Source of the DNA: Candidatus Omnitrophota bacterium
GTDB lineage: Bacteria > Omnitrophota > Gorgyraeia > Gorgyraeales > Gorgyraeaceae
Direction of reading: 5' to 3'
Length of the DNA stretch: 55,893 nt
Assembly (NCBI GenBank): GCA_042572045.1
Contig: JBHPFI010000005.1
Location: forward strand, 1-55,893
This document shows, one piece after another, positions 18,901-48,091 of this stretch (positions are counted from its first letter, which is position 1; every line of letters begins with the position of its first letter). The notes under the pieces were generated by a model. The model searched no databases and was not told the origin of the DNA. It worked only from the letters and a program-made list of their open reading frames with translations. The position numbers and the translations under genes were made by a program.

Positions 18901-19787
18901 GGCCGGGTTTTCCATCTCTCATGGAACCAAACCCATTGAGAAGGAAACCTTTTTATGTAATTTTCTATAACCTTTGTATACCTCTGAGTGTTTTCCAATA
19001 TATCTTTTTCTTTATCCTCGCCGATCCTCAACTCTATCGGCTCTTCAATCAAAATCTCATGCCCAAAAGACTTTCTTACAATAAAACATGGGATTATAGG
19101 GGCCTTTGTCAAACGATTCAGAGCAGCCGGCCCGTTAGGCGTGTAAGCTGGCTTGCCGAAAAAATCAACAAACACCCCTGATATGCTGTCCATATCTTGA
19201 TCGGGCATTATGCCCACAAACTCATTTTTCTTAAGGAGTGCTATTACGTCTTTCGCTGAGGCGTCCCTGTAGAGAACATTAACCTTGTTTCTCTTTCTGA
19301 CCCTCTTTAAAACTTTCTCAAATTGCTCCATCCTCACGCGCCTGGCAATAACATTTACTGAGTATCCCTTTATTGCAAAATAATGGGCCAGGAATTCCCA
19401 GTTCCCAAAATGCGCTGTAAGTACTATACCCCCTCCGCCCTTTTGAATAAAGCGCTCTATTATCTCAATGCCTTTACATTCTATATAATTATCTATATTG
19501 CCCTTATTAAATTTGGATAGGGCCACTATCTCTATGAAATTTTTTCCCAGATTTTCAAAGACCTTTCCTGCTATAATCCTTTTTTCTTGCGGTGATTTAG
19601 AGCTGCCAAAGGCAATATCCAGATTATCTAAGGTTATCTTTCTTGGATTTTTAAGGCTGTGGAAAGCTATCTTTCCTAACGCCTGCCCTATCCTGAGCGC
19701 TAACCTTATAGGTAGTAGATAGATAAAAAAGCTCAAGATTCTAAAGAGCACAAAAATAACAGCCCTCTTCGGCTTATTCTTAGCCAT
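18897..19787 (-). CDS. Lipid A secondary acyltransferase (LpxL/HtrB family)
   Basis: N-terminal TM, HFGNWE catalytic motif, PDQD, FFG, QWVWFHERWK. Confidence 0.9.
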   Translation of the reverse strand: MAKNKPKRAVIFVLFRILSFFIYLLPIRLALRIGQALGKIAFHSLKNPRKITLDNLDIAFGSSKSPQEKRIIAGKVFENLGKNFIEIVALSKFNKGNIDNYIECKGIEIIERFIQKGGGGIVLTAHFGNWEFLAHYFAIKGYSVNVIARRVRMEQFEKVLKRVRKRNKVNVLYRDASAKDVIALLKKNEFVGIMPDQDMDSISGVFVDFFGKPAYTPNGPAALNRLTKAPIIPCFIVRKSFGHEILIEEPIELRIGEDKEKDILENTQRYTKVIENYIKRFPSQWVWFHERWKTRP

Positions 19788-19867
19788 AGCCGAAATATAT
19801 TATCATAGATAGGATATATAAGTCAATGGAATTAACGGGTAGGCCGCGCGGAAATCATACTCACACC

Positions 19868-19920
19868 CCTCTAATAACTTGACACTTTTGTCCTTGACTG
19901 ATTTGTCAAGTTATTAGAGG
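19868..19920. repeat. 41-bp palindromic dispersed element, copy B (reverse orientation, 17-bp perfect arms) at the end of the pilus locus
   Basis: CCTCTAATAACTTGACA-19 nt-TGTCAAGTTATTAGAGG; reverse complement of the loop matches copy C at 17/19. Confidence 0.9.
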
Positions 19921-19926
19921 AGCGTC

Positions 19927-20373
19927 TTAAAAGGGTTTCAGTTCAAGGGTATATCTTTCGCCATCCTGCTCCAGAATCACGCTCTTTTCAGTAATCTCAA
20001 CAACTCTCATATCGCCAATTCTGTCTTCAACTTTTACAACATCATCATTTATAATAGCATATGGATATTCCTTGTCCCATACAATGCCATTCAATAATAT
20101 TCCATCTAAAGCAGGGCTAGCCATAGTAGAGCCAGCGAATGAAAAAGGGTCTCTCCTCCATTCTTCCTTTATATCAGCTCCCTTTAGTTCCGCCTCCTCA
20201 ATAGATATAGGAACTAACAACGAAGACACCGCTAACTTACTCATCTCCATTGTAGTCTTTTTTTCCTTTTGAATCTTTTGCATATTACTAATAACTAAGA
20301 ATATTAAAATTACAATACCAATAGCTGTTATTATAAGTTCAGTTTTCTGTTTTTTATCTAAGTTTTTAAACAT
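19927..20373 (-). CDS. MshK/PilP/GspB-like pilus assembly protein
   Basis: N-terminal TM, WRRDPF motif, C-terminal LNGIVWD..PYAIIN..V.V.D domain; follows the PilO-like gene. Confidence 0.7.
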   Translation of the reverse strand: MFKNLDKKQKTELIITAIGIVILIFLVISNMQKIQKEKKTTMEMSKLAVSSLLVPISIEEAELKGADIKEEWRRDPFSFAGSTMASPALDGILLNGIVWDKEYPYAIINDDVVKVEDRIGDMRVVEITEKSVILEQDGERYTLELKPF

Positions 20374-20374
20374 A

Positions 20375-20959
20375 TTACTTCCCAAGGAGGTAAGCGGTTA
20401 AATCTATCTCCGCGTTTAAGATAGGGGTCATGCTCTCATCTTTTTCTATGTTTACCTGTTCTATGGAGATCATTGGGGCCCTGCTTGTCTCAAGATTTAC
20501 AAGAAACTGCCCCAGGGCCTGATATCTAGCTTCAACATTTAAAGTCAAAGGCATGCATTTACAGAAAAAATCTGAAAGCTTAAGCTCTTTTCCCTCATGA
20601 TCTTTATATATCTCAAAATTTTCTGGCTTCAATGAAATTACATTTATTTTAAATAGCTTTGCCTTTTCGTTTAATCCCTTGATTATATCTGACACTGCCC
20701 TTTCATAAGGAAATGCCTCCTCAAGCAAAGCCAATTCCCCGCGCATCTTTATGATATTATTCTCCAATGCCTCCTGCCCCCCAATAAAATCATAAAGCCC
20801 CTCTATATCTGATCTTAATTCCCTATGTTCTCTGTTCAGCCTTTTGAACTCCCTATGCTTCGGGATATACGCAAACTGAAACAATAGTGCTAACAGGAGT
20901 ATAAAGACGCCTACCATCAAAATATCTTTTTTATTCTCTATTTTAAATCTTACACTCAA
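20375..20959 (-). CDS. pilO: PilO/MshJ-like alignment subcomplex protein
   Basis: TM, coiled coil, ferredoxin-like C-terminus (PLTLNVEARYQALGQFLVNLE). Confidence 0.8.
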   Translation of the reverse strand: MSVRFKIENKKDILMVGVFILLLALLFQFAYIPKHREFKRLNREHRELRSDIEGLYDFIGGQEALENNIIKMRGELALLEEAFPYERAVSDIIKGLNEKAKLFKINVISLKPENFEIYKDHEGKELKLSDFFCKCMPLTLNVEARYQALGQFLVNLETSRAPMISIEQVNIEKDESMTPILNAEIDLTAYLLGK

Positions 20960-20962
20960 AGC

Positions 20963-22495
20963 TTACCTCACAACGCTACAAACAATCTCAAAATCTAACG
21001 CCTCTTTTGAATAATCTTCATTCTTTTCAGAGAAGCTCAGTTTCACCTTTTCGAATACTGGAGAGGTCTCCAGATTAGACATAAATTCGCTTAAACTCTC
21101 CTCTTTCAACACAACGCCTGCAATCTTTACATTCGGCTCTGTATCTTTTATAATCAAATCGCTAAATATTACAAAAGAGGACGTTAGATTGCTCAGCTCT
21201 CTCATTACCCTTCCTGTGTATATATTTTCATGAGAGACAACATTTACAGCATAACCAAGCATTGTTATTTTATCCTTAATGGACCTCACGTCCTTCAATG
21301 TAGCCCAATGTGGCCTATAGATATCCAACTCATTTTTCAGATTAGCTACCTTCATAAATAACAATCCATAGAAAATAAAAAATAATGATAAAAGCACAAC
21401 GAAGAACATCCTTAAAGAGAATCTTTTAAACTCAGTTTTTTTCTCATCTTTAAATCTTGCTGGGATCATATTTAAATCAGATTCATTAAGCAAGGGTAGG
21501 CCTGCCGCACATGCTGTCTCAGGCAGGGCCTCCAATACTTGGAGTCCTGTCTCTTTCGATAAATACTCCTTAAGGCCTTTTAAGTTTGAACCGCCACCCG
21601 TTAAAATAATATTTTTAACTGCATCACATTTAAATCTATGGGCATAATACTCCAAAGATCTTTTTATCTCATTTGAGAACCTCTCCAAGACCGGCCTCAT
21701 CATTGATAAAATCCTTATATCCTCGGAGATACCCTGCTCGCGCTTTATCTTTTCTGCTCTGTCCTTAGAAAGTTCCACCTTGCCTTTATCTGTCATCAAA
21801 ACCCCTGTCATTGCCTCTGTAATATTATCTCCGCCGACTGCCACATCTCTTGCAAAAGACAATTTCCCGTTTTCGATAATACCTATAGTTGTCTTAACGC
21901 TACCTATATCTGCAATAGCCACCCTCTCCCTTGGAGAAACTATACCTAAATGGGTTACGTAGCTGGCAATGGCAAACTCACTTGGGAAAACGCCTTGTAT
22001 ATTTAATCCAAGATCTTTTAATCTCTTTACCTTTTCTTCGACATCCTCGTCTTTATAAACTACTGCAATCAGATCTATCTTTCTGGAACCATCATCAGAG
22101 TCTATTTCACCTAAAACATTGAATCTTATCTTTGTCTTGTCGATGTCAAACTTGACCTGATCTTTTAACTCCCATTTCAAGGCCCCCTCTATCTCTTCAT
22201 GAGGCATTACTGGCACGCTCGTTCTTCTTACTGCCATATTGTCTCCGCTAAAATTCACAAATATCGCTTCCTCACTATCTATAGACATATCCTTGTTTAA
22301 ATCTTTCACATACTCTGCTTCCTTTATCAAGCTATTTTTAATAGATAAGCCTTTACTTGTCTTCTGAATCCTAGCGGCCTTAAAATATTTTAGCCCTAAA
22401 TCCAGGCCGATTAGGTTCTCAGCTTTTGTCTTAAGGCCTAGACCTGAGAGAAGCGATTTAGTCTCCTTTTGGAGTTGCTTTATTATAGCTTTCAT
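20963..22495 (-). CDS. pilM: PilM-PilN fusion (MshI/GspL architecture)
   Basis: Actin-like PilM motifs IGLDLG, ADIGS, EIKRSLEYY, ILTGGGS, then LNMIP (PilN INLLP), TM, coiled coil, FMSNLETSPVF. Confidence 0.85.
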   Translation of the reverse strand: MKAIIKQLQKETKSLLSGLGLKTKAENLIGLDLGLKYFKAARIQKTSKGLSIKNSLIKEAEYVKDLNKDMSIDSEEAIFVNFSGDNMAVRRTSVPVMPHEEIEGALKWELKDQVKFDIDKTKIRFNVLGEIDSDDGSRKIDLIAVVYKDEDVEEKVKRLKDLGLNIQGVFPSEFAIASYVTHLGIVSPRERVAIADIGSVKTTIGIIENGKLSFARDVAVGGDNITEAMTGVLMTDKGKVELSKDRAEKIKREQGISEDIRILSMMRPVLERFSNEIKRSLEYYAHRFKCDAVKNIILTGGGSNLKGLKEYLSKETGLQVLEALPETACAAGLPLLNESDLNMIPARFKDEKKTEFKRFSLRMFFVVLLSLFFIFYGLLFMKVANLKNELDIYRPHWATLKDVRSIKDKITMLGYAVNVVSHENIYTGRVMRELSNLTSSFVIFSDLIIKDTEPNVKIAGVVLKEESLSEFMSNLETSPVFEKVKLSFSEKNEDYSKEALDFEIVCSVVR

Positions 22496-22516
22496 GACTT
22501 TTCAATTATACCACAA

Positions 22517-23575
22517 TCACAATGACTCCTGCCACAAAGAAGTTGTAATTGCACCAGTAGCATACCCCTCAAAATATGGAGGTGGATTTGTTGCTATATC
22601 AGAATCGTAATTAATAGTAAAACTTGCACCAGTCTTTATAGATATATTGCCTCCTGCTAGTATAGACGTATTCATGGTAACAGTATCAAGATTATCAAAA
22701 TCTATATTGCCATCAGCAGATATCAAGCCATTTATAGTGGAATCTGATAAACCATCTCCGCTGATATTGCCTCCTGCAATAAGCGCAGGATAGCCGGACG
22801 CAGCATCTATAGTTAGAGAGTCTACTGCCATGGAAATGCCTAGCCTAGCAATAACCGAACCATATATGGTAACATTTCTCTCTATAGTAGCGCTTCCATC
22901 TATATACCAAATTTCTTCACTGCCAGCTGACCCGTAGGTATTTCCCTCTGTAAATGTAAAACCGCCGCTTTCAACATTATCAGCTATAGCCTCATAACCA
23001 TCCGTATCAACAGGCGTGGGATCGTCTACACTTGAACTTTCAGTTACAGTACCGTTTATTGTCATACTGCCGTAATTTTTAACTGAGCTTGAAGATGCTA
23101 CATCACCATTCACTGTGCCTGTGGAATTCTTAAAATCTATCCAACTGCCAAAACCATGGAAGCCATAATCAAAGGCCTCTGGTGTCCCTCCAGAATATCC
23201 GCCAGCTGATCTTTCTACATGTTGCGTTATAACCCTCTGAACATCATTCCAATCCCAGCCCGTAACCTTGCCCGTTGCTGTTATGTCGATAGAATTAGTT
23301 GCCTCATTAGCATAAGTTACGCTAAATGTACCTACATCAAAAGATTGATCAGTTTTAACAGTCGGGGGACTCGACCAATCACTATCGTTCTCTAATTGCT
23401 CCATGTACCATTCCAAACCTGCGTGCGCCAGATAAAATGCCTGTTGCGCTTGCATATCTGCTACGGATGATATATTCCCACTGGACATTGTAGACGCCAC
23501 AACCAGCGCCAAAGTAGCTATTATCAACATTATAATAACAGTGGCTACCAGTGAAATACCTCTATTATTAATCAT
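22517..23575 (-). CDS. PilX/MshP-like minor pilin with extended beta-solenoid C-terminus
   Basis: RG|ISLVA without Glu+5, QAFYLAHAGLE PilX motif; repeated A.GNI turns; start ATG 23575. Confidence 0.75.
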   Translation of the reverse strand: MINNRGISLVATVIIMLIIATLALVVASTMSSGNISSVADMQAQQAFYLAHAGLEWYMEQLENDSDWSSPPTVKTDQSFDVGTFSVTYANEATNSIDITATGKVTGWDWNDVQRVITQHVERSAGGYSGGTPEAFDYGFHGFGSWIDFKNSTGTVNGDVASSSSVKNYGSMTINGTVTESSSVDDPTPVDTDGYEAIADNVESGGFTFTEGNTYGSAGSEEIWYIDGSATIERNVTIYGSVIARLGISMAVDSLTIDAASGYPALIAGGNISGDGLSDSTINGLISADGNIDFDNLDTVTMNTSILAGGNISIKTGASFTINYDSDIATNPPPYFEGYATGAITTSLWQESL

Positions 23576-23576
23576 T

Positions 23577-24083
23577 TTAAAAATTCCTCGGAACACTTTC
23601 CGACTGCAAATAGACATTTTCTCCGTTCTTTGTAAGGGTCAGATTTACCATCACCCTTCTTACATCAGTTTCACTTGGACTCACAGTTGGTGTAGAAATA
23701 GCAGAACCGCTGGAATCAAAATAAGTAAACGCTAAACTCGAAACATCTTCTGCAAGCGTATTGCTGACTCCATTCTCCGTCCTATTAAGATCCGTAATGC
23801 TTAAACTATATGTTATATCAATATCATCCGTATTTATAAACCTAAACTGTGAAGAACTCGCCGTAGTAACGCTAGTTAGATCCTTTACCTCTCTCATCTC
23901 CCGCAACATCCTGTTCATGGCAAGCCTTCCGTCCCACAAAATGTCATTGCGGTTAAATTTGAATGTCCATGCATCAACTGTTCCAAGTAAAACAAATCCA
24001 ACAACGCCAGTTATAATGCCAATTATCATTATAACTATCACCAGCTCTATAAGCGTAAAACCATTTACCTTATTCATGGACAT
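23577..24083 (-). CDS. Minor pilin (PilW/GspJ/MshO-like)
   Basis: NG|FTLIELVIVIMII class III signal; GRLAMNRMLREMRE; ends PRNF. Confidence 0.85.
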   Translation of the reverse strand: MSMNKVNGFTLIELVIVIMIIGIITGVVGFVLLGTVDAWTFKFNRNDILWDGRLAMNRMLREMREVKDLTSVTTASSSQFRFINTDDIDITYSLSITDLNRTENGVSNTLAEDVSSLAFTYFDSSGSAISTPTVSPSETDVRRVMVNLTLTKNGENVYLQSESVPRNF

Positions 24084-24085
24084 GC

Positions 24086-24457
24086 TCAGTTATTAGTGAC
24101 AATGGTTTTCAAACTAACATCTCCTATTATGACATTAGTTACTCGTACCTCTACTTGTTTATAATTGCTCTTGCTAGGATCAACTGCTATGTCCGTAGGC
24201 ACTGCGCTCATTATAACCCGAAAAGAATAATTGCTAAAATTTCCACTGAAATTTGCAGGAGGCTCATTGCTAACATCCGCAAAGCTCAAGCCTGAAACCC
24301 GCTCCATCTCTCCTTTTGCCAAGCCTACAGCAACAGCCATCACTTCATCTCGCGGCGCATTTATAAACACTCCTGTAACAACTGTTAACAGCCCCAAAAA
24401 AGCAATGCCTATAACCACTACTGCTATCATTGTCTCTATTAAGGTAAAGCCTTTCAC
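24086..24457 (-). CDS. Minor pilin (PilV/GspI/MshD-like)
   Basis: KG|FTLIETMIAVVVI; AVGLAKGEME; KQVEVRV. Confidence 0.85.
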   Translation of the reverse strand: MKGFTLIETMIAVVVIGIAFLGLLTVVTGVFINAPRDEVMAVAVGLAKGEMERVSGLSFADVSNEPPANFSGNFSNYSFRVIMSAVPTDIAVDPSKSNYKQVEVRVTNVIIGDVSLKTIVTNN

Positions 24458-24942
24458 TGTATGCTCACCTTCCCCGTCACTGGTTCAATCCTTACTGTCT
24501 TAGAATTTGAGTCATCTGTCAGAGTCACTATGCCCTCGCTCGACACCAAAACTCCGTTTCCGTCATAAGGCGCACCGATAGAATCAAACTCTACTGCATC
24601 GCTAAAATTAGTGCTTACTATTTGTATCTCATTGAATTCTCTCATCTCATCAAATTCAACCTCTAAATCACCCTGTGTTTGCGGGTCTTTTGCCTTGCTA
24701 GAAGTATTTATCCTATATCCAAAATACGCTTCATCGCTGGTATCAAATGAAATCCCGAATCTCACCTGTTCAGCCATTGCCATCTCTTGCATATACCTTA
24801 AATCCATTGCAAGTCTTTGACATGCTGCCTCGAGCCTGATAGGCCCCTTTGCTGTTCCGCTGACAAGCACCGTAACTGCCAGAATCCCTAATACAACTAT
24901 TATTATCGCCAGCTCTATCAATGTAAAACCCTGCCTGTGCAT
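24454..24942 (-). CDS. Minor pilin (FimT/GspH/MshC-like)
   Basis: QG|FTLIELAIII; LAMDLRYMQEMA; FDSIGAP; IEPVTG; start ATG 24942. Confidence 0.85.
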   Translation of the reverse strand: MHRQGFTLIELAIIIVVLGILAVTVLVSGTAKGPIRLEAACQRLAMDLRYMQEMAMAEQVRFGISFDTSDEAYFGYRINTSSKAKDPQTQGDLEVEFDEMREFNEIQIVSTNFSDAVEFDSIGAPYDGNGVLVSSEGIVTLTDDSNSKTVRIEPVTGKVSIQ

Positions 24943-25020
24943 ATTTAAATCTCCCGCTATGCTAAACAAAAAAACTATACCTCATAATATATCTAAACTA
25001 TACCTTACGCCAGTAAAAAA

Positions 25021-27378
25021 TCAACCCTTCGACTTTTTCTGACGCAATATACTAACGAACCAGAAGCCGAATAAAGCTGCAATTGTAACCAACGTCACCA
25101 GCATACCTATCTTAAGCGACAGCGGGTTATACCTGAACCTCACGATATGTTCTCCTGGCTCGATACGCACTGCGCGCAAAATGTAATCAGCTCTATAAAT
25201 CTTCTCGCGGCTACCATCTACATAAGCCTCCCACCCAGGATAATATGAATCGCTTAAAACTAAAAACTTTTCACTTTTAGCCTTGGCCTCAATAATGATT
25301 TCATTGGGTTCATATTTTACTATAGAAACCTTTTCAGATCTTATGTCTGAAACAAAATCAGTCCTCCTTAAGGACGCTTCCTCTTCCAGAATAATTTCCT
25401 CTGAAGGATCAAATTCCTTGCTTTTTAATGTTTCGAGTATTTCTTTCTCGTCTTTAAGGACCTTTACATTGTCCGCCAAAAACGCCCTGGCCATAACATT
25501 TCTATTCTCATAAATATTTACCTTGTCCGTCTTCTCGGCAACATGATACCCCTTTGCCTCAAAATCCTTTGGCGAAATCACATACTTCACATTTAATAGA
25601 TTTAATAGATTTGTATCGTCAGGAAGGTCCGAATGTATTATTATATCCATTACCTCTTCGTGCCTTCTATTGTAAAGTGAACCATATCCATATGCGTCAT
25701 AAATCTGAAAACTCACGCCCCTGTTAGAGACCAGCCTTTCTCTAAGAGACCTCATGCCCTCAAGATAGTCTCTCTCCGGAACAAAGGTATTCTGCCTCAA
25801 TGTTGCCGGAGAATCGAATATTCTGAATAGGGCCTTATCCTTTTTTAAAAATTCGATGCCCTTGCCTGGTTTTAGATGCTCGTCGATATCCATATTCTTG
25901 TATATATTTACATTTGCCGTAAAGACATCCCATAAGGCTACAGAGATTAATACAGGGATCAGTAAATTCAGGTTCATCTTCCTCCTCAGCCCAAAAAACA
26001 TAAACAATGCCAAAAACATGAAAATACCGATTGCCCTTTTTAAATTATGCACCCCCACAAGAATAAACTGCGCCAAAGCATCCTTTTTGTCCATAAAATA
26101 GGGCGCACTATTTAATATCCTGACATGTAAAAAACTACATATTTTTGTAAAATTCAAATTGACTGCGAGATAAAAAAATGACGCTACAAAAGCCAGGATT
26201 AAAATCGTTTTTAAGAATCTCTTGAGAAAATGGTTTGACTTGATAGCCTCTCTATAATAATCCAAACCCATCCCTGCCAGGATTGCCAAAGAGAACGAAA
26301 CCATAAAAAAGAATTTTATAGGGTATCTTGAAAGACTAAAACCCGGCATAAGCTTGTATAAAAAATAATAGACTGGGGTGTATCTGCCAAATGAAAGAAT
26401 CAGGCCCAATGCCAGGATATAAAAAAATACCTTTCTCCTTTTTGTAACGACGAATTTCAGGGCCAAGAAAGCGCATAAGAGGGTAAATATACCCATGTAA
26501 TACACTAATAGCCAGCTCTGTCTACCCCAATAATCTTTGTAGAGATAATCTGACTCGCTCAAATAAGGCACAAATAAATCCAGAAGCGCGTACGGAGGAA
26601 AGGACCACATGGAGGCCTCGCCAAAATCCATGCTCGCCCTGGAAGAATATCCTACAAATTCCAGAAAAGGCAAAATCTGAAAACATGAAAGCCCTGTCAT
26701 GACTAATAAGGAAAGCCCCAACGGCTTTATATTCGGTCGGCCCAGCAAGAGCAATATAAAGACCGTGGAATAGACTATTATCGGCTCTCCCCCTAAAAAC
26801 ATAAAGGCTAAAAATATCCCCGTAATCATGGAATTTTTGATCCATTCTTTCTTTAAGGATCTCTCGTAAAATAAAATCGCAAGCGGGAGCCATACAATAG
26901 AGGCGAGCGATGCCGGAAGATTTATCACAGAGATAATATATCCGCTGAACATAAAGGCTATACTTGAAAAAAATGACGCATATCTTGAATAAGCCCAGCT
27001 TCTCATTAAGATATAGGTGAATAGGCCTGCGAGGAAGATATGTAATATTATGAAATAGTTAAATGCGTGCGGGTAAGAAAAAAAGAGGTATATTACGCTT
27101 AGAGGATAAAATACACATGTCTGAAGTTCTGCGAGATGCGGGCTTCCGCAGTGGATATAAGGATTCCATAAAGGGACTTTATGGCAAAGAAACTGTGTTA
27201 CGCTGAATTCTCTTAAAGGATAGAAGAACCTGGAAAGGTCCCTGTGAACGAATATTTTGCCTTCAAATAAAACATCTGAAAAAAAGATAGCTACAAGAGC
27301 AATTAAAATAAAAAAAGGGACAGCTTCTTTTAGCCATCCCTTTTTTTCTATAATAATACGCTTCAAAATTCGCGTCAA
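25021..27378 (-). CDS. YfhO-family GT-C membrane glycosyltransferase
   Basis: RD...FYP, PLWNPY..GSP, FYP, many TMs, SRYP, LLNVKY, LVLSDSYYPGWEAYVDG, GEHIVRFRY.P; likely TTG start 27378 just after the pilin stop. Confidence 0.88.
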   Translation of the reverse strand: MTRILKRIIIEKKGWLKEAVPFFILIALVAIFFSDVLFEGKIFVHRDLSRFFYPLREFSVTQFLCHKVPLWNPYIHCGSPHLAELQTCVFYPLSVIYLFFSYPHAFNYFIILHIFLAGLFTYILMRSWAYSRYASFFSSIAFMFSGYIISVINLPASLASIVWLPLAILFYERSLKKEWIKNSMITGIFLAFMFLGGEPIIVYSTVFILLLLGRPNIKPLGLSLLVMTGLSCFQILPFLEFVGYSSRASMDFGEASMWSFPPYALLDLFVPYLSESDYLYKDYWGRQSWLLVYYMGIFTLLCAFLALKFVVTKRRKVFFYILALGLILSFGRYTPVYYFLYKLMPGFSLSRYPIKFFFMVSFSLAILAGMGLDYYREAIKSNHFLKRFLKTILILAFVASFFYLAVNLNFTKICSFLHVRILNSAPYFMDKKDALAQFILVGVHNLKRAIGIFMFLALFMFFGLRRKMNLNLLIPVLISVALWDVFTANVNIYKNMDIDEHLKPGKGIEFLKKDKALFRIFDSPATLRQNTFVPERDYLEGMRSLRERLVSNRGVSFQIYDAYGYGSLYNRRHEEVMDIIIHSDLPDDTNLLNLLNVKYVISPKDFEAKGYHVAEKTDKVNIYENRNVMARAFLADNVKVLKDEKEILETLKSKEFDPSEEIILEEEASLRRTDFVSDIRSEKVSIVKYEPNEIIIEAKAKSEKFLVLSDSYYPGWEAYVDGSREKIYRADYILRAVRIEPGEHIVRFRYNPLSLKIGMLVTLVTIAALFGFWFVSILRQKKSKG

Positions 27379-27388
27379 TCTATATTGT

Positions 27389-27793
27389 TTACCAGGTAGA
27401 AGTATCCTGCGTCCCGTCGGAATAGGCCCCTGCCTTGCCGGAAGCAGATATATACCACCATCCATTAGCGGATGTAGCTGTTCCGCTAGGCGCAGATCCT
27501 ACAGCTCCTACAGACGTAGAATTGTTAAATTTATTCTCCGGAACACGTTCGTCCGCGAATAGATCTGTTGTGATCGCAGAAGGAAACGCTACAGTACCGG
27601 ACGTAGCGCTCTTTGCATAATCAATCGCAATCACTGAACGAAGCGCGCCCAGACCGCTTTTAGTAGCAGATATTTCTGCTTCTGTAGTAAGGTCTACAAA
27701 TTTTGGAATAGCTATAGCTGAGAGTATCCCAAGTATGACAATCACCATTACTAGCTCAATAAGAGTAAAGCCGGCTTCCTTTTTTAACATCAT
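27389..27793 (-). CDS. Major type IV pilin, MshA-like
   Basis: AG|FTLIELVMVIVILGILSAIAIPKFVDL..EA; Ser/Thr/Gly-rich C-terminus; AGGAGG RBS. Confidence 0.88.
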   Translation of the reverse strand: MMLKKEAGFTLIELVMVIVILGILSAIAIPKFVDLTTEAEISATKSGLGALRSVIAIDYAKSATSGTVAFPSAITTDLFADERVPENKFNNSTSVGAVGSAPSGTATSANGWWYISASGKAGAYSDGTQDTSTW

Positions 27794-28170
27794 CGCATCC
27801 TCCTTTTTACCTCTCCTGTTTTATTATTATATATAAACCTATGGCCGTTAGGACATATAGGATAGCCTTCTTTATCCAATGTCTGAAATTCCAAATATTC
27901 CTTATCGTATAAGCTGTCTTCTTTTATTACCTTACATTCCTTGTTAAGCTCTCTTAAATCTTCTGGATAATGACCTTCCAATGCTTTATATAATTCTACT
28001 GAGGTCTTAATATTTGTCAATTGATTCTCTAATGCAACCTCCTGTGCCTCTTTAAGATTGATGATACCATATTTTATAAATATACCTGAAATACCAAGTA
28101 AAATCAATATAGAAAATATAGTTTCTATCAACCCCCTTCCTTTATTATCATTTTCAAATCTGTGATGCAT
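27790..28170 (-). CDS. Atypical pilin-like protein (MshF/GspG-like)
   Basis: KG|RGLIE (Arg at +1, Glu at +5), TM, EVALENQLTNIK...LY....HYPEDL; start ATG 28170. Confidence 0.65.
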   Translation of the reverse strand: MHHRFENDNKGRGLIETIFSILILLGISGIFIKYGIINLKEAQEVALENQLTNIKTSVELYKALEGHYPEDLRELNKECKVIKEDSLYDKEYLEFQTLDKEGYPICPNGHRFIYNNKTGEVKRRMR

Positions 28171-28174
28171 TAAT

Positions 28175-28393
28175 CTATGTCTTGTACAAATAATAAGCGA
28201 CAAAAAGTAATGTTAAGCCTGAAAGCAATAAACAAATCCCTATACCTTGTTTATACTTATAGGCAAGGCTATCCAAATCCTTTATTAGCTTATTTGCCTT
28301 AGTATTTATTTTGTCAAAGCTCTCCTTTGGTAGTATTAATAAAAGAAACCCAAAAAACAATGCTATGATCCCTGAAAATATCAAAAAACACAT
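28175..28393 (-). CDS. Small two-TM membrane protein of unknown function
   Basis: 72 aa, two hydrophobic helices, GAGG RBS, tightly packed in the operon. Confidence 0.7.
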   Translation of the reverse strand: MCFLIFSGIIALFFGFLLLILPKESFDKINTKANKLIKDLDSLAYKYKQGIGICLLLSGLTLLFVAYYLYKT

Positions 28394-28408
28394 CTCTGCC
28401 TCTCTTTC

Positions 28409-29626
28409 TCAGTGCCTAAAGGCTGACACCAGGCTCCACATAGGCATAAATACAGCCATGGCAAGAAGCAAAACCAGCATCCCCACCATTAATATTAAAA
28501 TCGGCTCTATTAGAACTGTCAGATTTTTTACAGTATAATCTGTTTGAGAATCATAATAATCTGAAACTCTCAGAAGCAAATCATCTACCTTGCCTGTTTC
28601 TTCGCCGATCTTCACCATCTGCATAACGATAGACGGGAATAAGCTACTTGCCTTCATGGGCTCTGCCAGGCCTTTGCCCTCTTCAACGCCTTTAATGATA
28701 TTATCGATAGAGTTCGCGATAATCCTGTTTCCAATAGATTTTTTAACAACAGCCAACGTTTCTATAATAGGCACTCCGCTGGCAGAAAGTACAGACGTCA
28801 TCCTACTAAACCTTGACATTGAAAACTTTAAAATAAGCGGGCCAAAAACCGGGATCTTTAACTTAACATTATCCCACAGAAGTCTTCCGATTTTAGTGTT
28901 GATAAAATATCTGAATGCAAATATTAAAACCAATACTCCAATAACCACAAGGAACCAGTAATGGACCAGTGCAAAATTCAAATTCAAAAGCATCCTTGTG
29001 GGAAGAGGGAGTTCAGCGCCAAGCCTTGCGAAAAGCGTACTGAACTTTGGTATAATAAACATTACTACTAAAGGAAACGCAAGAGCAATGCTCGCCATGA
29101 CCAATAATGGATAACGCGTCGCCTGTTTTATCTTCATCCTCATATCCTGCTCGTGTTCAAGAAGATTTGAAAGCCTCTCCAAGATAGTGTCAAGGATCCC
29201 AGCCACCTCTCCAGAACGTATCATATTTATATAAATCTCAGAGAATATGCCGGGAAACTTGGCTATGGAATCTGAAAAGGCTTTTCCCGCTTCTATATCA
29301 CGGGAAATCTCTTGAATGACATCCCTAAAATAACTGTTGCTACTCTGAGCGCATATAGACTCTAAACTGACAAGAATCGGCACGCCAGCGCGCTGAAGCG
29401 TCATAAGCTGACTAGTGAAAACTATCAATTCTTCTAAATTTACTCTACGGAAAAATCTTTGAAATGGTAGGGATTTTTTTAACCCTGGACTGGCCTTCTC
29501 TATCAGCGTAGGCGAATAGCCCATCTTTTTGAAATGGCTGGCAATGGATTCTGTGGATTCGCCCTCCATGGTGCCTGTAGACGCTCGCCCATATTTATCT
29601 CGGATTTTATATCGAAAAACTGGCAT
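28409..29626 (-). CDS. pilC: Type IV filament platform protein (PilC/GspF/MshG)
   Basis: FTSQL.TL..AGVPI, GE.AG.LD, YP, LP.PT, GEETG, IEP. Confidence 0.93.
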   Translation of the reverse strand: MPVFRYKIRDKYGRASTGTMEGESTESIASHFKKMGYSPTLIEKASPGLKKSLPFQRFFRRVNLEELIVFTSQLMTLQRAGVPILVSLESICAQSSNSYFRDVIQEISRDIEAGKAFSDSIAKFPGIFSEIYINMIRSGEVAGILDTILERLSNLLEHEQDMRMKIKQATRYPLLVMASIALAFPLVVMFIIPKFSTLFARLGAELPLPTRMLLNLNFALVHYWFLVVIGVLVLIFAFRYFINTKIGRLLWDNVKLKIPVFGPLILKFSMSRFSRMTSVLSASGVPIIETLAVVKKSIGNRIIANSIDNIIKGVEEGKGLAEPMKASSLFPSIVMQMVKIGEETGKVDDLLLRVSDYYDSQTDYTVKNLTVLIEPILILMVGMLVLLLAMAVFMPMWSLVSAFRH

Positions 29627-29680
29627 CGCTTTCCCCTCTGCATCATAACCTATTTGAGAAATGGACTATGAACGAGAACT

Positions 29681-31366
29681 TCATTCTTCCTGTGTTGCCT
29701 TTATTACCTCCTCTGCAGTTGTAACGCCTTTTAGCATCTTATCCAGACCGCTGTTTCTCAATGTCTTCATTCCATCTTCAACTGCCTTCCTCTGTATCGC
29801 GTCACTTGAGGCTCTGTTAACAACCAATTTTCTGATCTCTTCATTGAGCACTAAAAGTTCATATATACCGATTCTGCCCTTGTATCCTGTATTCTTACAA
29901 ATATTGCACCCCTTACCTCTGTATAATTCCTTAACATCTGCTGGAGTTACCCCAAAGCCCTTCAATAGATCCTCTGGGGGCTTATAAGCCTCTTTACATT
30001 TTGGACAAATCTTCCTTACAAGCCTCTGGCCTAAAATTCCTATAACAGAGCTGGAGATCAAAAACGGCTCCACTCCCATGTCCAAGAGTCTCGTTAAGGC
30101 GCCACTGGCGTCATTTGTATGCAATGTGCTGAAAACAAGGTGGCCTGTCAATGCTGCCTGCACGCTAATCTCAGCAGTCTCTTTATCCCTTACCTCTCCT
30201 ACCATAATTACATCCGGGTCTTGCCGTAATATTGACCTTAGACCTGATGCAAATGTCAATCCTGCTCTTGGATTTATCTGGGACTGCCTTACCCTGCCCA
30301 AGTGGCACTCAACAGGATCTTCTATGGTAATAATATTTTTTTCCTCCGAATCAATTACAGAAAGCGCTGAATAAAGAGTGGTGGTTTTACCGCTACCCGT
30401 AGGCCCTGTTGCCAGTATTATCCCGTAAGGCTGCCTTATCAACCTCTCAAACTTTTTCTGGACCGCCTTAGGAAAACCGAGCTTATCAAGATCCAGCAAT
30501 ATCGCTACCTTATCCAATATCCTTATTACAATATTCTCTCCGTATATAGTAGGAAAGGTAGAGACCCTCAGGTCAATGTCTCTATTTTCCGCCTTTATAT
30601 TAAACCTCCCGTCCTGAGGCTTTCGCTTCTCAGAAATGTCAAGATTGGCAAGCACTTTTATTCTCGACAAAAGAGCAAGTTCCAGATGTTTTGGCGGAGA
30701 GAACATCGCATACAGAATCCCATCGACCCTGAATCTTATCTTTAACGTATTTTCTTCTGGTTCAATATGTACGTCACTTGCCTTATCCTTTACCGCCTGC
30801 ATAATTATAAGATTTACAAGTTTTATTACAGGAGCATCTTCTGCTATCTCACTAAGCCTTTGCGAATCTATTTCAAGACGCGGCGCTTCCTTTTTTCTTT
30901 CTCTATTGATATCCTTTATTACATCGTCAACTGAACCCGTCACGCCGTAATACTGGTCTATTGCATTTAATATGCCCTTCTCGCTTGCCAATACCGGTTC
31001 TATCTCGCATGCGGATCTCTGCGCCAGGTCATCTATACTCATGATATCCTTGGGGTCTGTCATGGCTACTGTAAGGGTGTTGCCTATTTTAAAGACAGGT
31101 ATCACTCTAAACTTCCTCGCTATACTTTCCGGGATAAACTTCAATGTCTTAGAATCGACCAGATAATTTGTCAGATCGATATACGGCACTTCCAGGATCT
31201 CTGACATTGCCTGTACATAATCATCTTCGCTTACTGCCCCTGAGCGCACCAGCAACTTACCAAGGGGAATACCTTTTTTCTTGGACTCCTCCCTCATTTT
31301 ATTAATCTGCTCTTCTGTAATAAGAACGCGTTCCAGCAATATCTGTTCTATAGTTTTTTCTCTCAT
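29681..31366 (-). CDS. pilB: Extension ATPase (PilB/GspE/MshE family)
   Basis: GPTGSGKTT, EDPVE, RQDPDVIMVGEVRD, TGHLVFSTLHTN, CPKC/C..C zinc motif, degenerate MshEN N-terminus. Confidence 0.95.
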   Translation of the reverse strand: MREKTIEQILLERVLITEEQINKMREESKKKGIPLGKLLVRSGAVSEDDYVQAMSEILEVPYIDLTNYLVDSKTLKFIPESIARKFRVIPVFKIGNTLTVAMTDPKDIMSIDDLAQRSACEIEPVLASEKGILNAIDQYYGVTGSVDDVIKDINRERKKEAPRLEIDSQRLSEIAEDAPVIKLVNLIIMQAVKDKASDVHIEPEENTLKIRFRVDGILYAMFSPPKHLELALLSRIKVLANLDISEKRKPQDGRFNIKAENRDIDLRVSTFPTIYGENIVIRILDKVAILLDLDKLGFPKAVQKKFERLIRQPYGIILATGPTGSGKTTTLYSALSVIDSEEKNIITIEDPVECHLGRVRQSQINPRAGLTFASGLRSILRQDPDVIMVGEVRDKETAEISVQAALTGHLVFSTLHTNDASGALTRLLDMGVEPFLISSSVIGILGQRLVRKICPKCKEAYKPPEDLLKGFGVTPADVKELYRGKGCNICKNTGYKGRIGIYELLVLNEEIRKLVVNRASSDAIQRKAVEDGMKTLRNSGLDKMLKGVTTAEEVIKATQEE

Positions 31367-31731
31367 ATCTGTCTCTTTGTATAAAAATTTATCTTACTTA
31401 CAAGCTCTTCTATTTCAACAGGTTTAGAGATAAAATCAACTGCTCCGACATCTTTTACCTCTTTAGCAGTCTTACCGCCAGCAGAAAATAATATAACAGG
31501 TATATCCTTGAGCTCGTTATCCTCTTTCAGTTTCTTGCAGACCTCATAACCATGCATGACAGGCAGAAACAAATCTAATAGTATGATATCGGGCTTCATC
31601 TCTTTTGCTTTTTTAAAAGCGTCTAACCCATCATATGCGCACTTTATCTCAAACCCCCTGGATTCCAGGCGTATCTTCGTGATTTCTGTCAGATCTGTTT
31701 CGTCGTCTACCAATAGTATCTTTGTAGCCAT
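31363..31731 (-). CDS. Stand-alone response regulator receiver (type B); stop overlaps the ATPase ATG
   Basis: ILLVDDE, LLD, FSA, KPV. Confidence 0.93.
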   Translation of the reverse strand: MATKILLVDDETDLTEITKIRLESRGFEIKCAYDGLDAFKKAKEMKPDIILLDLFLPVMHGYEVCKKLKEDNELKDIPVILFSAGGKTAKEVKDVGAVDFISKPVEIEELVSKINFYTKRQI

Positions 31732-31771
31732 TACAGCCTACCTCATATAACGCTACCGATTACTTCGCTCT

Positions 31772-32146
31772 TTATATTTTCAATATATCTCTTATCTTAA
31801 AAATCAAATCGTCCAGCTCGAATGGCTTTTCAATATATCCATCGATCTTTTGAAAAGCAAACAGGTCTCTTACCTTTTCCTCTTCTTTGCCGCTCAGCAT
31901 CAAGATAGGCACATTTTTTACCTTCGGAAGATTTCTTATTTCCTTTAAACAGCTGTATCCATCCATCTTAGGCATCATAATATCTAAAATAATCAGATCG
32001 GGCGTCTCCTGTTCCGCAGTCTTTACTCCTATGTCACCATCGCCTGCAAGCACAACTTTAAAATTCTCCTGCTGAAGTCTTATCCTAAGTAATTTTTGTA
32101 TATCTTCTTCGTCATCTATAACCAAAATCTTTTTCTGCTCTTCCAT
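31772..32146 (-). CDS. Stand-alone response regulator receiver (type A)
   Basis: ILVIDDE, ILDIMMPKMDG, LSG, KPF; start ATG 32146 behind AAGGAGG. Confidence 0.93.
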   Translation of the reverse strand: MEEQKKILVIDDEEDIQKLLRIRLQQENFKVVLAGDGDIGVKTAEQETPDLIILDIMMPKMDGYSCLKEIRNLPKVKNVPILMLSGKEEEKVRDLFAFQKIDGYIEKPFELDDLIFKIRDILKI

Positions 32147-32217
32147 GTTTTCCTCCTTTAATAATAAATCTGTCCGAGACGCGAGCAAAGTTAAACACGC
32201 CGCGAATAATTATATCC

Positions 32218-32586
32218 CTATTTAATTAGCTTTTTTATATTCTCCAATAAAATCTGCGGTTCGAATGGCTTCGTGATGTAAGCGTCGGCGCCCATCTGTT
32301 TACCGAGCTCTTCATCTTGTTTTTGAGCGCGCGCGGTAAACATAATGATAGGAATGGTCTTATATCTCTCGTCAAACTTGAGCATCCTGCATACCTTAAA
32401 TCCATCTATCTTGGGAAGCATCAGATCGAGGATTATCAAATCCGGTTTGGCAGACCTGGCTTTTTCTAAACCCTCCTGTCCGTCTCCTGCTTCCAAGACA
32501 TCATAATCCATTGCTTCCAGGCGGAATTTCAGCATCTTCCTTAAATCTTCTTCGTCATCAACCAAAAGTATTCTTTTTTTATCCAT
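32218..32586 (-). CDS. Stand-alone response regulator receiver (type B)
   Basis: ILLVDDE, ILDLMLPKIDG, FTA, GADAYITKPF. Confidence 0.93.
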   Translation of the reverse strand: MDKKRILLVDDEEDLRKMLKFRLEAMDYDVLEAGDGQEGLEKARSAKPDLIILDLMLPKIDGFKVCRMLKFDERYKTIPIIMFTARAQKQDEELGKQMGADAYITKPFEPQILLENIKKLIK

Positions 32587-32950
32587 TTACTACTATCTTT
32601 ATTTTTTGTAATAAATCGCTTGGCTCAAATGGCTTTTCAATAAAAAATGCTATCTTTTCGAGAGCGAAAAGATCCCCAAGCTTTTTCTTTTGTTTAGCGC
32701 TTAGGACAATAACGGGTATCTCTTTAAGGTCCTCCTTATTTCTCATCTCCCGCAAGGCGCTGTATCCGTCCATGTTTGGGAGCATAATGTCAAGCAATAT
32801 CACGTCTGGCTTTTTAACCTCCACGACCTTAAGCATTTCATTGCCATCTTTCGCGCACATAAATTCATATCCCTCTGCCTCTAGTCTCATCTTCAACATC
32901 TTTAGTAAGTCTTCGTCGTCATCTACAACCAATATCCTTTTCGCATCCAT
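32579..32950 (-). CDS. Stand-alone response regulator receiver (type A)
   Basis: ILVVDDD, LLDIMLPNMDG, LSA, KPF; GGAGGTG RBS. Confidence 0.93.
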   Translation of the reverse strand: MDAKRILVVDDDEDLLKMLKMRLEAEGYEFMCAKDGNEMLKVVEVKKPDVILLDIMLPNMDGYSALREMRNKEDLKEIPVIVLSAKQKKKLGDLFALEKIAFFIEKPFEPSDLLQKIKIVVNG

Positions 32951-33066
32951 TCTTCACCTCCGGTATTCAATATATATGATGTTTTTCTAATAAATCTTTT
33001 TTATTTCCTGTTTTCTTACGACAAGCTATTTCATGGTCAAGCATGATATTTATATACATTATATAG

Positions 33067-33094
33067 AGTATATACCAAAATATTACCTAGTCAA
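33067..33094 (-). promoter_or_regulatory. Candidate promoter of the receiver/pilus operon
   Basis: TTGACT (33089-33094), 16 nt, TATACT (33067-33072). Confidence 0.5.
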
Positions 33095-33200
33095 CCTGTC
33101 TGTATCAAAAAACTGTGCTGTTTAAACAAACAGGTTGTATAATCACTGCCTATGTTTTCTGTTACCGGTTGTACTGTATAGCCAGTGCAATGTGTTACTT

Positions 33201-33710
33201 TTAAAAACGAGATGTCACCTTGTCCCAAAGCCCCTGCGATTTCAATATTATTTCAATGGCCTCTCTCACAGCGCCTTTGCCACCCTCTTTCTTAGTGATA
33301 TAGTGGGACACCTTTCTGACCTCTTCTACTGCATTCGGAGGTGCTACCGCAAAGCCAACCCTTTTTATTATAGCAAGGTCCAAAAGGTCATCCCCTATAA
33401 AACAAACCTCTTCATCTTTTAACCTGAACTTCTTGATGACCTTCTCATAGACCCTGAGCTTTCTGTGGTCTGAATAAACAGCCGCAACGTGCATATCGCG
33501 CGCCCTACGTCTGACTACCCTACTCTTTCTTGCAGTAATAATAACTGATTTTATGCCTCCTTTATAAAGAAGCATCATGCCAAAACCATCAAGCACGTTA
33601 AAACATTTAAGCATATCTCCAAGATTGTCGTAAATTATGCGGCCATCAGTAAGCACTCCGTCAACATCCAGTATTAACAGCTTTATCTTTCTTGCTTTTT
33701 CTTCTATCAT
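33201..33710 (-). CDS. kdsC: KDO 8-phosphate phosphatase
   Basis: LDVDGVLTDG HAD motif, GDDLLD, GGKGAVRE. Confidence 0.95.
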   Translation of the reverse strand: MIEEKARKIKLLILDVDGVLTDGRIIYDNLGDMLKCFNVLDGFGMMLLYKGGIKSVIITARKSRVVRRRARDMHVAAVYSDHRKLRVYEKVIKKFRLKDEEVCFIGDDLLDLAIIKRVGFAVAPPNAVEEVRKVSHYITKKEGGKGAVREAIEIILKSQGLWDKVTSRF

Positions 33711-48083: not shown

Positions 48084-48091
48084 AATACTGA

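Follow-up and report, generated by a model that had tools for sequence, protein, structure and literature searches.

A conserved, lineage-specific type IV filament locus with adjoining receiver and YfhO-family genes in Omnitrophota

The type IV filaments most similar to the locus described here are the mannose-sensitive haemagglutinin (MSH) pilus of Vibrio and Aeromonas, type IVa pili (T4aP) with an MshEN-bearing PilB (Geobacter, 5zfr/5tsg; Myxococcus, 3jc8; Thermus PilF), and the type II secretion systems (T2SS) of Pseudomonas (Xcp) and Comamonas (Gsp). In the account of Denise et al. 2019 (PMC6668835), the mandatory genes of the MSH class are mshA, mshE, mshG, and mshL, as well as mshM, nearly always in one locus, and MSH loci are presented as being without a prepilin peptidase. 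The cyclic di-GMP (c-di-GMP) site of the MshEN domain is described as a pair of 24-residue motifs with a five-residue linker (PMC5013675). We analyzed a stretch of 55,893 nucleotides (the window; contig JBHPFI010000005.1 of assembly GCA_042572045.1, labeled C5 here) from a Candidatus Omnitrophota bacterium, the genome of which comprises 1.64 Mb in 66 contigs and is 81% complete. At 19927-32950, 17 tightly packed minus-strand open reading frames (ORFs), several of which share a few bases with a neighbor, encode (in transcription order) four stand-alone receivers (REC1-REC4), a PilB/GspE/MshE-type ATPase, a platform protein, a 72-aa protein, an atypical pilin, the major pilin, a YfhO-family membrane protein, four minor pilins, a PilM-PilN fusion, a PilO/GspM-like protein, and a PilP/GspB-like protein. 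The original prediction, of an MSHA-like pilus that is phospho-regulated and glycosylated, was correct in all 17 genes with their coordinates, strand, and order, in their position between two lipopolysaccharide (LPS) blocks (kdsA-D-C on one side and lpxL-lptC/A-lptB on the other), and in the gaps: genes of a secretin, an MshM-type (AAA_22) ATPase, a TPR protein, PilT, and a prepilin peptidase were all missing from the locus and found elsewhere in the genome.

Like the MSH pilus, the locus has an MshEN motor, a platform (nearest to MshG), a major pilin and four minor pilins in the order A-C-D-O-P, and no prepilin peptidase; it differs from MSH in that PilM and PilN are fused and encoded behind the pilins, where MSH has I-J-K ahead of L, in a half-degenerate c-di-GMP motif, and in the added receivers and YfhO. 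With T4aP it shares the best full-length ATPase matches and the PilM-, PilN-, PilO-, and PilP-type alignment proteins, and the genome encodes PilT and PilD, whereas the ATPase scored below the PilB equivalog cut-off, the platform was apart from PilC references, no pilT or pilQ adjoined the locus, PilM and PilN were fused, and the pilin was small and without a disulfide. The order E-F-G-H-I-J-K-L-M, the GspL-like fusion, and an extra GspG-like pilin are features of T2SS operons, but GspC and GspD were absent from the locus and the minor pilins missed the T2SS Pfam models.

In a concatenated tree of the ATPase and platform (62 rows, 966 columns), the window was located in a 13-row Omnitrophota clade (support, 99), which was nested within a 19-row clade (98) together with WOR-3 and two other records. 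The 14 MSH rows formed their own clade (100) with the window outside it, the T4aP and T2SS references were found elsewhere, and the backbone was poorly supported. The tree of the ATPase alone similarly placed the window in a clade of 16 rows (support, 99) that was part of a larger one of 20 rows (98), and was unable to place the MSH references (joining them with the window clade cost 0.60 log-likelihood units, lnL; p-AU, 0.481, in the approximately unbiased, AU, test), while in the platform tree the window grouped with MshG (SH-aLRT, 94), apart from the T4aP (PilC) and T2SS references. The reference loci were those of Aeromonas caviae (MSH, Exe, and Tap), an MSH-type locus of Legionella, Xcp, Gsp, Acinetobacter PilBC, and 80 further MSH loci; the Legionella record was without a platform gene and provided no second MshG. 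The phylogeny, one of the checks proposed with the original prediction, therefore put the locus inside none of the reference classes tested. Since the window lay outside the MSH clade, MshF and MshB profiles missed their expected counterparts, no secretin of MshL grade was found in the genome, and the gene order is shared with T2SS (see below), we read the locus as part of a separate clade near T4aP and MSH, and not as a member of MSH in the sense of Denise et al. The locus is genuine and conserved, a lineage-specific form of a familiar machine rather than a true MSHA pilus. We consider it probable that the genes supply those parts of a type IV pilus that reside in the cytoplasm, inner membrane, and periplasm, within a deep, lineage-specific clade, which is related to T4aP and MSH and lies inside no reference class tested, with activity proposed to be set by the receivers and a pilin predicted to be glycosylated by YfhO. 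A pilus clade that is not absorbed by the reference classes is of interest in this phylum, the members of which are described as tiny, uncultured, and probably host- or prey-dependent, with pili as prime candidates for cell-cell contact (PMC10066038).

The complete gene order, including the position between kdsC and lpxL, was repeated in 15 loci fetched from 11 other genera of the family, which shows that the arrangement was not produced by chance and answers the proposed synteny survey. Among the 37 other genomes of the family, 23 contained an orthologue of YfhO (55-70% identity; a YfhO match was present in 11 of the 16 other genera) and 21 an orthologue of PilM-PilN (at least 46% identity); both were found together in 20 and neither in 13. 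The less typical proteins were also conserved in the family: the 72-aa protein had seven orthologues, the PilP/GspB-like protein had eleven, and orthologues of the atypical pilin shared the motifs NKG-RGLIE, ENQLTN, and EGYPxDPYGRRFIY. The genes of the 72-aa protein and atypical pilin were missing from one genus (g17). Paralogues of the PilP/GspB-like protein were encoded in the same genome after PilO on contig C60 and after an AAA_22 gene on contig C3.

Receivers beside the pilus motor

The residues D10, D11, D54, and K106 were invariant in REC1-REC4, with Ser/Thr at position 82-84, and the other receivers were 43-46% identical to REC1. A receiver and/or sensor kinase was encoded directly upstream of the ATPase gene in 22 of the 24 clade loci with upstream DNA, confirming that this association, on which the original prediction depended, is conserved; the larger upstream proteins were histidine kinases with dCache, PAS, GAF, CHASE, PilZ, or GGDEF-like modules. 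REC2 was 54-79% identical to receivers in 15 related loci, most of which were directly before the ATPase gene (the ATPases being 53-77% identical), and in the majority of distant loci the receiver encoded immediately ahead of the ATPase was 59-74% identical to REC2, with ATPases of 53-58%. By these comparisons, REC2 is the receiver that is conserved phylum-wide beside this ATPase clade. REC1, REC3, and REC4 were family-level orthogroups: REC1 at 72-74% identity, and REC4 with orthologues only in loci L065 and L303 (69% identity). The window locus itself is without a kinase; contig C2 carries a dCache-HK/REC/REC/PAS-HK/REC module, which is no more than a candidate.

The first c-di-GMP motif of the window ATPase failed even the relaxed published pattern, and the second failed only at its last position; on the NF053729 model the protein scored 38.6 bits (cut-off, 38) versus 73.6 for a true MshE. 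Both deviations recurred throughout the Omnitrophota clade, whereas KSB1-labelled relatives and MSH references kept the RLG motif. Phosphorylation may thus have replaced c-di-GMP as the motor input, and the conserved receiver-motor pair could provide a case in which phosphorylation, not c-di-GMP, gates an MshEN-type ATPase. CheY-like single-domain regulators that tune pilus extension and retraction are known: PilG/PilH in Pseudomonas and the PixG/PatA type in cyanobacteria. The window resembles these in that its receivers stand alone, but differs in three respects: one to four receivers are encoded directly before the motor gene in the clade, the kinases of its relatives are classical HisKA kinases with no CheA type seen, and one receiver orthogroup co-occurs with one ATPase clade.

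Between kdsC and lpxL-lptC/A-lptB, three genomes of 92-97% completeness without the pilus genes (G014, G022, and G036; loci L302, L305, and L304, respectively) still encoded two receivers together with a histidine kinase. The receivers were REC1 and REC3 in two genomes and REC2 and REC3 in the third; REC3 was therefore retained in all three and REC2 lost in two. At the same site in G002 (L303), orthologous receivers (REC2, 76% identical) were followed by a divergent cassette without YfhO, the ATPase of which was only 55% identical. The pilus-less sites and the exchange in G002 make the structural genes look like a cassette that was swapped or lost behind a stable regulatory module. In the window, the site in question between kdsC and lpxL corresponds to 32950-33201 and 19787-19927. 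Because the receivers persist in genomes without a pilus, what stands of "phospho-regulated" in the original prediction is the conserved gene association, while control of the pilus by the receivers is suggested from it.

The YfhO-family gene and the major pilin

YfhO is described as a predicted GT-C enzyme acting extracytoplasmically (PMC5836110), and the streptococcal members PgtC2, PgfM1, and PgfM2 are reported to O-glycosylate Ser/Thr-rich extracytoplasmic protein regions from undecaprenyl phosphate (Und-P)-sugar (bioRxiv 10.1101/2024.05.05.592596). These enzymes belong to the same Pfam family as the window YfhO; however, they come from Gram-positive bacteria and have a donor synthase (GtrB or PgfS) as partner, whereas the window locus is without such a partner gene. 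The arrangement of the window recalls pilA-tfpW and pilA-tfpO of P. aeruginosa, in which the gene of a pilin glycosyltransferase directly follows the pilin gene (bioRxiv 10.1101/2020.04.19.049825, 10.1101/150227). In both cases a membrane glycosyltransferase gene is immediately 3' of the major pilin gene, but the window enzyme is of the YfhO family (PF09586), not of the TfpW (a GT-C, by the title of Kus et al. 2008 in the references of PMC5836110) or O-antigen-ligase type, and its gene is inside a long operon, between the major and minor pilins.

A search with the window YfhO yielded 423 homologues at E <= 1e-5, including one orthologue from Candidatus Gorgyraea atricola; among the 120 matches listed, 117 carried PF09586, and the three without it were cut sequences. 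Asp43 was invariant in 45 homologues. The NCBIfam model PgfM2 gave 22 bits (cut-off, 1500), and a profile search identified no related solved structure. The YfhO gene directly followed pilA in all 15 family loci fetched. In 80 YfhO-family loci retrieved by profile (phylum labels from record titles), filament genes were present within 7 kb in 13 and in none of the other 67, and pilA was directly followed by YfhO in three loci of Omnitrophota type, four from Deltaproteobacteria/Binatia, and one from Saganbacteria in which YfhO is present twice (L220, L221, L225, L227, L275, L285, and L293 being among these). The association of YfhO with the pilus genes thus holds in 15 of 15 family loci and, going by record titles, spans no fewer than three phyla. 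The mature major pilin has 126 aa, no Cys, and 29% Ser/Thr in its globular part. The Ser/Thr content was rejected as a marker of YfhO linkage, since it gave no clean contrast between loci with and without YfhO.

It appears from gene context that the major pilin may be O-glycosylated by YfhO; of the glycosylation originally predicted, the pilA-YfhO association is established and the biochemistry is unproven. A YfhO-type enzyme recurring beside pilins in several phyla is in any case a candidate pilin glycosyltransferase, which, if true, would widen the known routes of pilin modification; by the Pseudomonas precedent, such modification matters for phage resistance and surface recognition. A literature search, with supplements not covered, found no described link between a pilin and YfhO and no described receiver-pilus locus of Omnitrophota; the TXSScan tables of PMC10066038 may list the locus as T4aP or generic.

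These features are consistent with the following scheme. The six prepilin-type proteins, in which leader motifs are seen, would be cleaved by the single prepilin peptidase of the genome, and at the periplasmic face the GT-C enzyme YfhO would move a polyprenyl-phosphate-linked sugar onto Ser/Thr of the major pilin. The four minor pilins would prime the fibre, possibly with the large fourth at the tip, and the PilB-like ATPase, PilC platform, PilM-PilN fusion, PilO, and PilP-like protein, as judged from family membership, would polymerise the pilin. The fibre would exit via a secretin encoded elsewhere, and PilT-type ATPases, also encoded elsewhere, may retract it. Activity would be set by a phosphorelay in which sensor kinases (encoded within the locus in relatives and elsewhere in the window genome) phosphorylate REC2, with REC1, REC3, and REC4 as a further relay or sink, and REC2 would act on the motor with its half-degenerate c-di-GMP site.

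Several observations weigh against this assignment. No receiver was found upstream in L075 and L078 of the ATPase clade, nor in L220 and L221, which bear YfhO, and in the three pilus-less genomes the receivers and kinase outlast the pilus genes, so that other targets are possible. The 81%-complete genome yielded no orthologue of the kinases encoded in related loci, with generic matches of only approximately 200 bits; similarly, no GtrB/CsbB-type donor synthase was encoded in the locus and a genome search gave only generic GT2 matches. The Ser/Thr contents of the pilins overlapped between loci with (24-34%) and without YfhO (19-32%). A secretin encoded inside the locus of a distant relative (L074) failed to identify a partner, being 27-31% identical to all three genome secretins. 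The trees were quick LG+G4 searches and the groups in the AU test were named after the tree had been seen, such that they are indications and not proofs: joining the window clade with MSH gave an lnL 3.8 above the free quick tree (p-AU, 0.63), and joining it with a 7-row canonical T4aP group cost 2.79 lnL (p-AU, 0.444), so that neither sister relation is rejected.

We regard a more far-reaching version only as a tentative proposal: a phylum-wide filament class sister to MSH, in which REC2 supplants c-di-GMP at the MshEN motor, the pilin is glycosylated by a YfhO enzyme shared with other phyla, and the structural genes are an exchangeable cassette, swapped or lost behind a fixed regulatory module in the kdsDC-lptCAB envelope operon. 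Another possibility, which is compatible with the assignment of the structural genes to a pilus, is that the accessory genes do not serve it, YfhO modifying an envelope glycoconjugate, such as LPS, and the receivers regulating envelope genes. The location inside the kdsA-D-C/lpxL-lptC/A-lptB block, the retention of receivers and kinase in the pilus-less genomes, the 67 YfhO-family loci without a pilus gene within 7 kb, and reports that known YfhO enzymes also modify teichoic acids (PMC5836110) all favor this idea. However, YfhO was present only together with the pilus cassette and absent from the pilus-less sites; in other phyla it was located between pilA and the minor pilins, with no kds/lpt flank seen there; and distant loci in which no upstream kds gene was detected also had REC2 and a kinase ahead of the ATPase gene. 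A role of both accessory components outside the pilus thus appears rather doubtful.

Comparison with T2SS and MSH filaments

A further alternative is a T2SS-like machine, in which a short periplasmic pseudopilus, and not an adhesive pilus outside the cell, is formed and pushes protein or other cargo through a secretin encoded elsewhere. The gene order E-F-pilin-H-I-J-K-L-M equals that of the Xcp and Gsp operons, the PilM-PilN fusion has the architecture of GspL, and the atypical pilin is GspG-like (its family profile gave 28-35 bits with T2SS loci and 14-20 bits with MSH loci). The ATPase barely passed the GspE model (TIGR02533: 630.8 bits; cut-off, 630.25), the last gene had weak T2SSB and T2SSC matches, and Omnitrophota secretion/pilus genes are reported to flank giant secreted proteins (bioRxiv 10.64898/2026.06.07.730766). 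On the other hand, joining the window clade with the three T2SS references (Exe, Xcp, and Gsp) cost 26.28 lnL (p-AU, 0.028), by which a sister relation to proteobacterial T2SS appears marginally rejected. Neither GspC, GspD, nor a cargo gene was found in the locus, the major pilin was without a T2SSG domain, and the minor pilins missed the T2SSI, T2SSJ, and T2SSK models, whereas the pilins of another locus in the same genome, on contig C9, were matched (T2SSG, 110 bits; T2SSK_1st, 58 bits). The ATPase aligned with GspE structures only from residue 164 on; its best matches among solved structures were the full-length PilB of Geobacter and Myxococcus (535-555 bits over residues 5-558), although it remained below the PilB threshold (TIGR02538: 652.1 bits; cut-off, 675.65). 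A pilin-modifying enzyme would also suit a surface-exposed fibre better than a pseudopilus. We therefore consider a secretion machine improbable.

The resemblance to MSH was assessed with profiles built from 15 diverse MSH loci, all ordered I-J-K-L-M-N-E-G-(F)-B-A-C-D-O-P-Q. The best matches in the genome fell colinearly in the window locus (MshA, 80.6; MshC, 74.4; MshD, 30.1; MshO, 47.5; MshP, 35.3; MshE, 617; MshG, 415 bits), which in MSH terms reads E-G-x-x-A-YfhO-C-D-O-P-like followed by the PilMN fusion, PilO, and PilP. The match to MshC spanned the full length, while those of the other minor pilins largely reflected the shared N-terminal helix (mostly N-terminal for MshO, and residues 14-75 only for MshP). 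The MSHA gene order in the original prediction is accordingly sound as far as these colinear matches go, but the same order is that of Xcp/Gsp T2SS and so is not diagnostic. The positions of MshF and MshB in that mapping were not borne out: MshF was rejected for the 72-aa protein because its profile gave no match, as was MshB for the atypical pilin, which is GspG-like.

Conversely, profiles of the window family scored MSH loci above the three T2SS loci (platform, 318-383 versus 225-248 bits), but the family ATPase profile gave MshE 490-540 bits, less than it gave the majority of PilB-like ATPases from other phyla (516-720), and the N-domain of the window ATPase matched Geobacter PilB at 89-90 bits and MshE less well (63.5 bits; range of MshE N-domains, 60-64). 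MshL, MshM, MshN, and MshQ were absent from the window locus, and neither mshL nor mshM was found in any of the 15 family loci. The genome secretins gave 189.6, 191.2, and 150 bits on the MshL model TIGR02519 (cut-off, 250.2; Aeromonas MshL control, 279) and scored higher as PilQ or GspD, the best PilQ score being 276.6 versus 284.35. An MSH-class pilus that was rearranged and split over several loci would agree with the colinear profile matches, the grouping with MshG, the joint clade in the AU test, the prepilin peptidase missing from the locus as in MSH (PMC6668835), the four MshM/GspA-like AAA_22 genes of the genome (two beside secretins), and the relatives L078 and L129 with a secretin and MshM-like gene beside the ATPase gene, but it is very unlikely, given the position outside the MSH clade, the secretin scores, the lack of mshL and mshM in the family loci, the profile misses, and the account of MSH as a system almost invariably encoded in one locus, in which I-J-K-L-M-N precedes E (PMC6668835; likewise the 15 reference loci). 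At most, a possible sister kinship remains of "MSHA-like".

Two observations concern the records used. The Aeromonas caviae record NZ_AP026896.1 (L040), a PLSDB "plasmid" entry, is a 4.9-Mb chromosome, and at 473807-476723 its Tap-type ATPase gene, which was not used, is split by a 380-aa ORF.

Gene content, flanks, and further filament loci

Family assignments of the parts (Table 1) were based on Pfam and NCBIfam profile matches.

Table 1. Features of the pilus locus in the window, in order of transcription
Feature	Position	Strand	Profile matches and remarks
REC1, stand-alone receiver, 123 aa	32579..32950	-	PF00072, 90 bits; D10, D11, D54, and K106 kept
REC2, stand-alone receiver, 122 aa	32218..32586	-	PF00072, 100.9 bits
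REC3, stand-alone receiver	31772..32146	-	PF00072, 93 bits; phospho-acceptor pocket intact
REC4, stand-alone receiver	31363..31731	-	PF00072, 93 bits; 4-base overlap of its stop with the ATPase start
PilB/GspE/MshE-type assembly ATPase, 561 aa	29681..31366	-	PF00437, 486 bits; N-terminal MshEN PF05157, 69 bits
PilC/GspF/MshG-type platform, 405 aa	28409..29626	-	PF00482, 174.5 bits
72-aa protein, two hydrophobic stretches	28175..28393	-	no Pfam/NCBIfam family
Atypical GspG-like pilin, 137 aa	27790..28203	-	T2SSG, 20.3 bits (cut-off, 21)
Major pilin, 134 aa	27389..27793	-	N_methyl, 33 bits; leader MMLKKEAG, then FTLIE
YfhO-family membrane protein, predicted GT-C glycosyltransferase, 781 aa	25021..27366	-	PF09586, 84.6 bits (cut-off, 28.5)
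Minor pilin, GspH/FimT/MshC type	24454..24969	-	N_methyl, 26.8; GspH, 17.7; TIGR01708, 41 bits
Minor pilin, GspI/PilV/MshD position	24086..24457	-	N_methyl, 24.5 bits
Minor pilin, GspJ/PilW/MshO position	23577..24083	-	N_methyl, 30.5 bits
Large minor pilin without Glu5, GspK/PilX/MshP position	22517..23617	-	NF037980 GspK, 21.9 bits (N-terminus only); PilX_N, 15.5 bits
PilM-PilN fusion, 510 aa, GspL-like architecture	20963..22495	-	PilM_2, 103.9; PilN, 42.3 bits (both above cut-off)
PilO/GspM-like, 194 aa	20375..20959	-	PilO, 23.9 bits (cut-off, 22)
PilP/GspB-like, N-terminal membrane helix and small C-terminal beta domain	19927..20385	-	T2SSB, 21.6; CdsD_C, 25 bits (both below cut-off)

The most likely starts were 27366 for YfhO, as in the protein database entry, and the ATG at 32146 for REC3; the atypical pilin probably starts near 28170, and the fourth minor pilin at approximately 23575, giving approximately 352 aa. 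The latter scored 0.98 with PilX_N-type clusters of the atlas, and a beta-solenoid-like C-terminal part is a lead only. A promoter scan was not above shuffles (42 found versus 38.6 expected), and terminator-like sites in the region numbered 16 versus 9.1 +/- 3.3 in shuffles. One hairpin of 16 pairs with a T run (27310-27347, minus strand) is located approximately 40 bases past the pilA stop, within the first codons of YfhO, and could act as an attenuator keeping pilin transcripts in excess.

The missing parts that the original prediction proposed to locate (secretin, pilT, and pilD) were all found elsewhere in the genome: secretins on contigs C23, C19, and C33 (three full or 5'-cut), with C36 carrying a fragment, a single prepilin peptidase on C7, and two PilT/PilU ATPases on C20 and C1 (445 and 408 bits; cut-off, 319), with none of the PilT/PilU and secretin genes linked to the locus. 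Four AAA_22 (MshM/GspA-like) genes gave 172-295 bits on the MshM profile, and two of them adjoined secretins. GspA/ExeA of T2SS likewise belongs to the AAA_22 family.

Besides the window locus, the genome carried at least four filament loci. In the T2SS-like locus on C9 (L033:3787-18597), F-type ATPase subunit genes come first, and after them are encoded a lone MshEN protein, an ATPase of 713 aa ending in a PilZ domain, a platform, a Peptidase_MA_2 protein, a strong GspG, GspJ/K-like pilins, a PilM-PilN fusion, and PilO; a T2SS-like locus after F-type ATPase genes is described for Omnitrophota by Seymour et al. (PMC10066038). On C23 (L028:5463-13835), a PAS histidine kinase, receiver, MerR, AAA_22, 232-aa protein, 613-aa secretin, and two TPR proteins are encoded; this orphan secretin module is a possible partner in trans of the window locus. 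C19 (L029:3493-9896) encodes a GspK-like protein, PilM-PilN fusion, PilO, MerR, AAA_22, T2SSB-like protein, and 692-aa secretin ending in TonB_C. On C21 (L034:5026-12690), four tandem ComP_DUS-like pilins after a platform gene are followed downstream by genes of a GT-C protein (PMT_2+TPR), a GT2, and a methyltransferase, which may constitute a second pilin-modification module. C1 (L039:3027-4475) encodes a 482-aa REC-GGDEF-MshEN protein. On C3 (L300:4001-6153), a stand-alone AAA_22 gene, the best match of the genome to the MshM profile (295 bits), precedes the PilP/GspB-like gene, and two PilZ genes adjoin. Among the relatives, in L074 (17998-21626) the secretin gene is followed by a DUF2344 gene, as on C33 of the window genome, while L078, L129, and L265 have an MshM-like gene and secretin beside the ATPase gene; in L265 (Thermodesulfobacteriota), an MshL-like secretin (363 bits on the MshL profile) is convergent with a YfhO gene.

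The upstream flank of the pilus locus consists of kdsC, kdsD, kdsA, pyrG, and kdsB, and the downstream flank of an lpxL-like acyltransferase gene, an LptC/LptA fusion, lptB, tig, and clpP. Three fused proteins were found in the window outside the locus: LptC fused to an LptA/LptD_N domain (17993-18850; 285 aa), a GT4 fused to a GT9 heptosyltransferase (45993-48095; 700 aa), and a lipid A acyltransferase fused to an ELM1-like domain (48092-50107; 671 aa).

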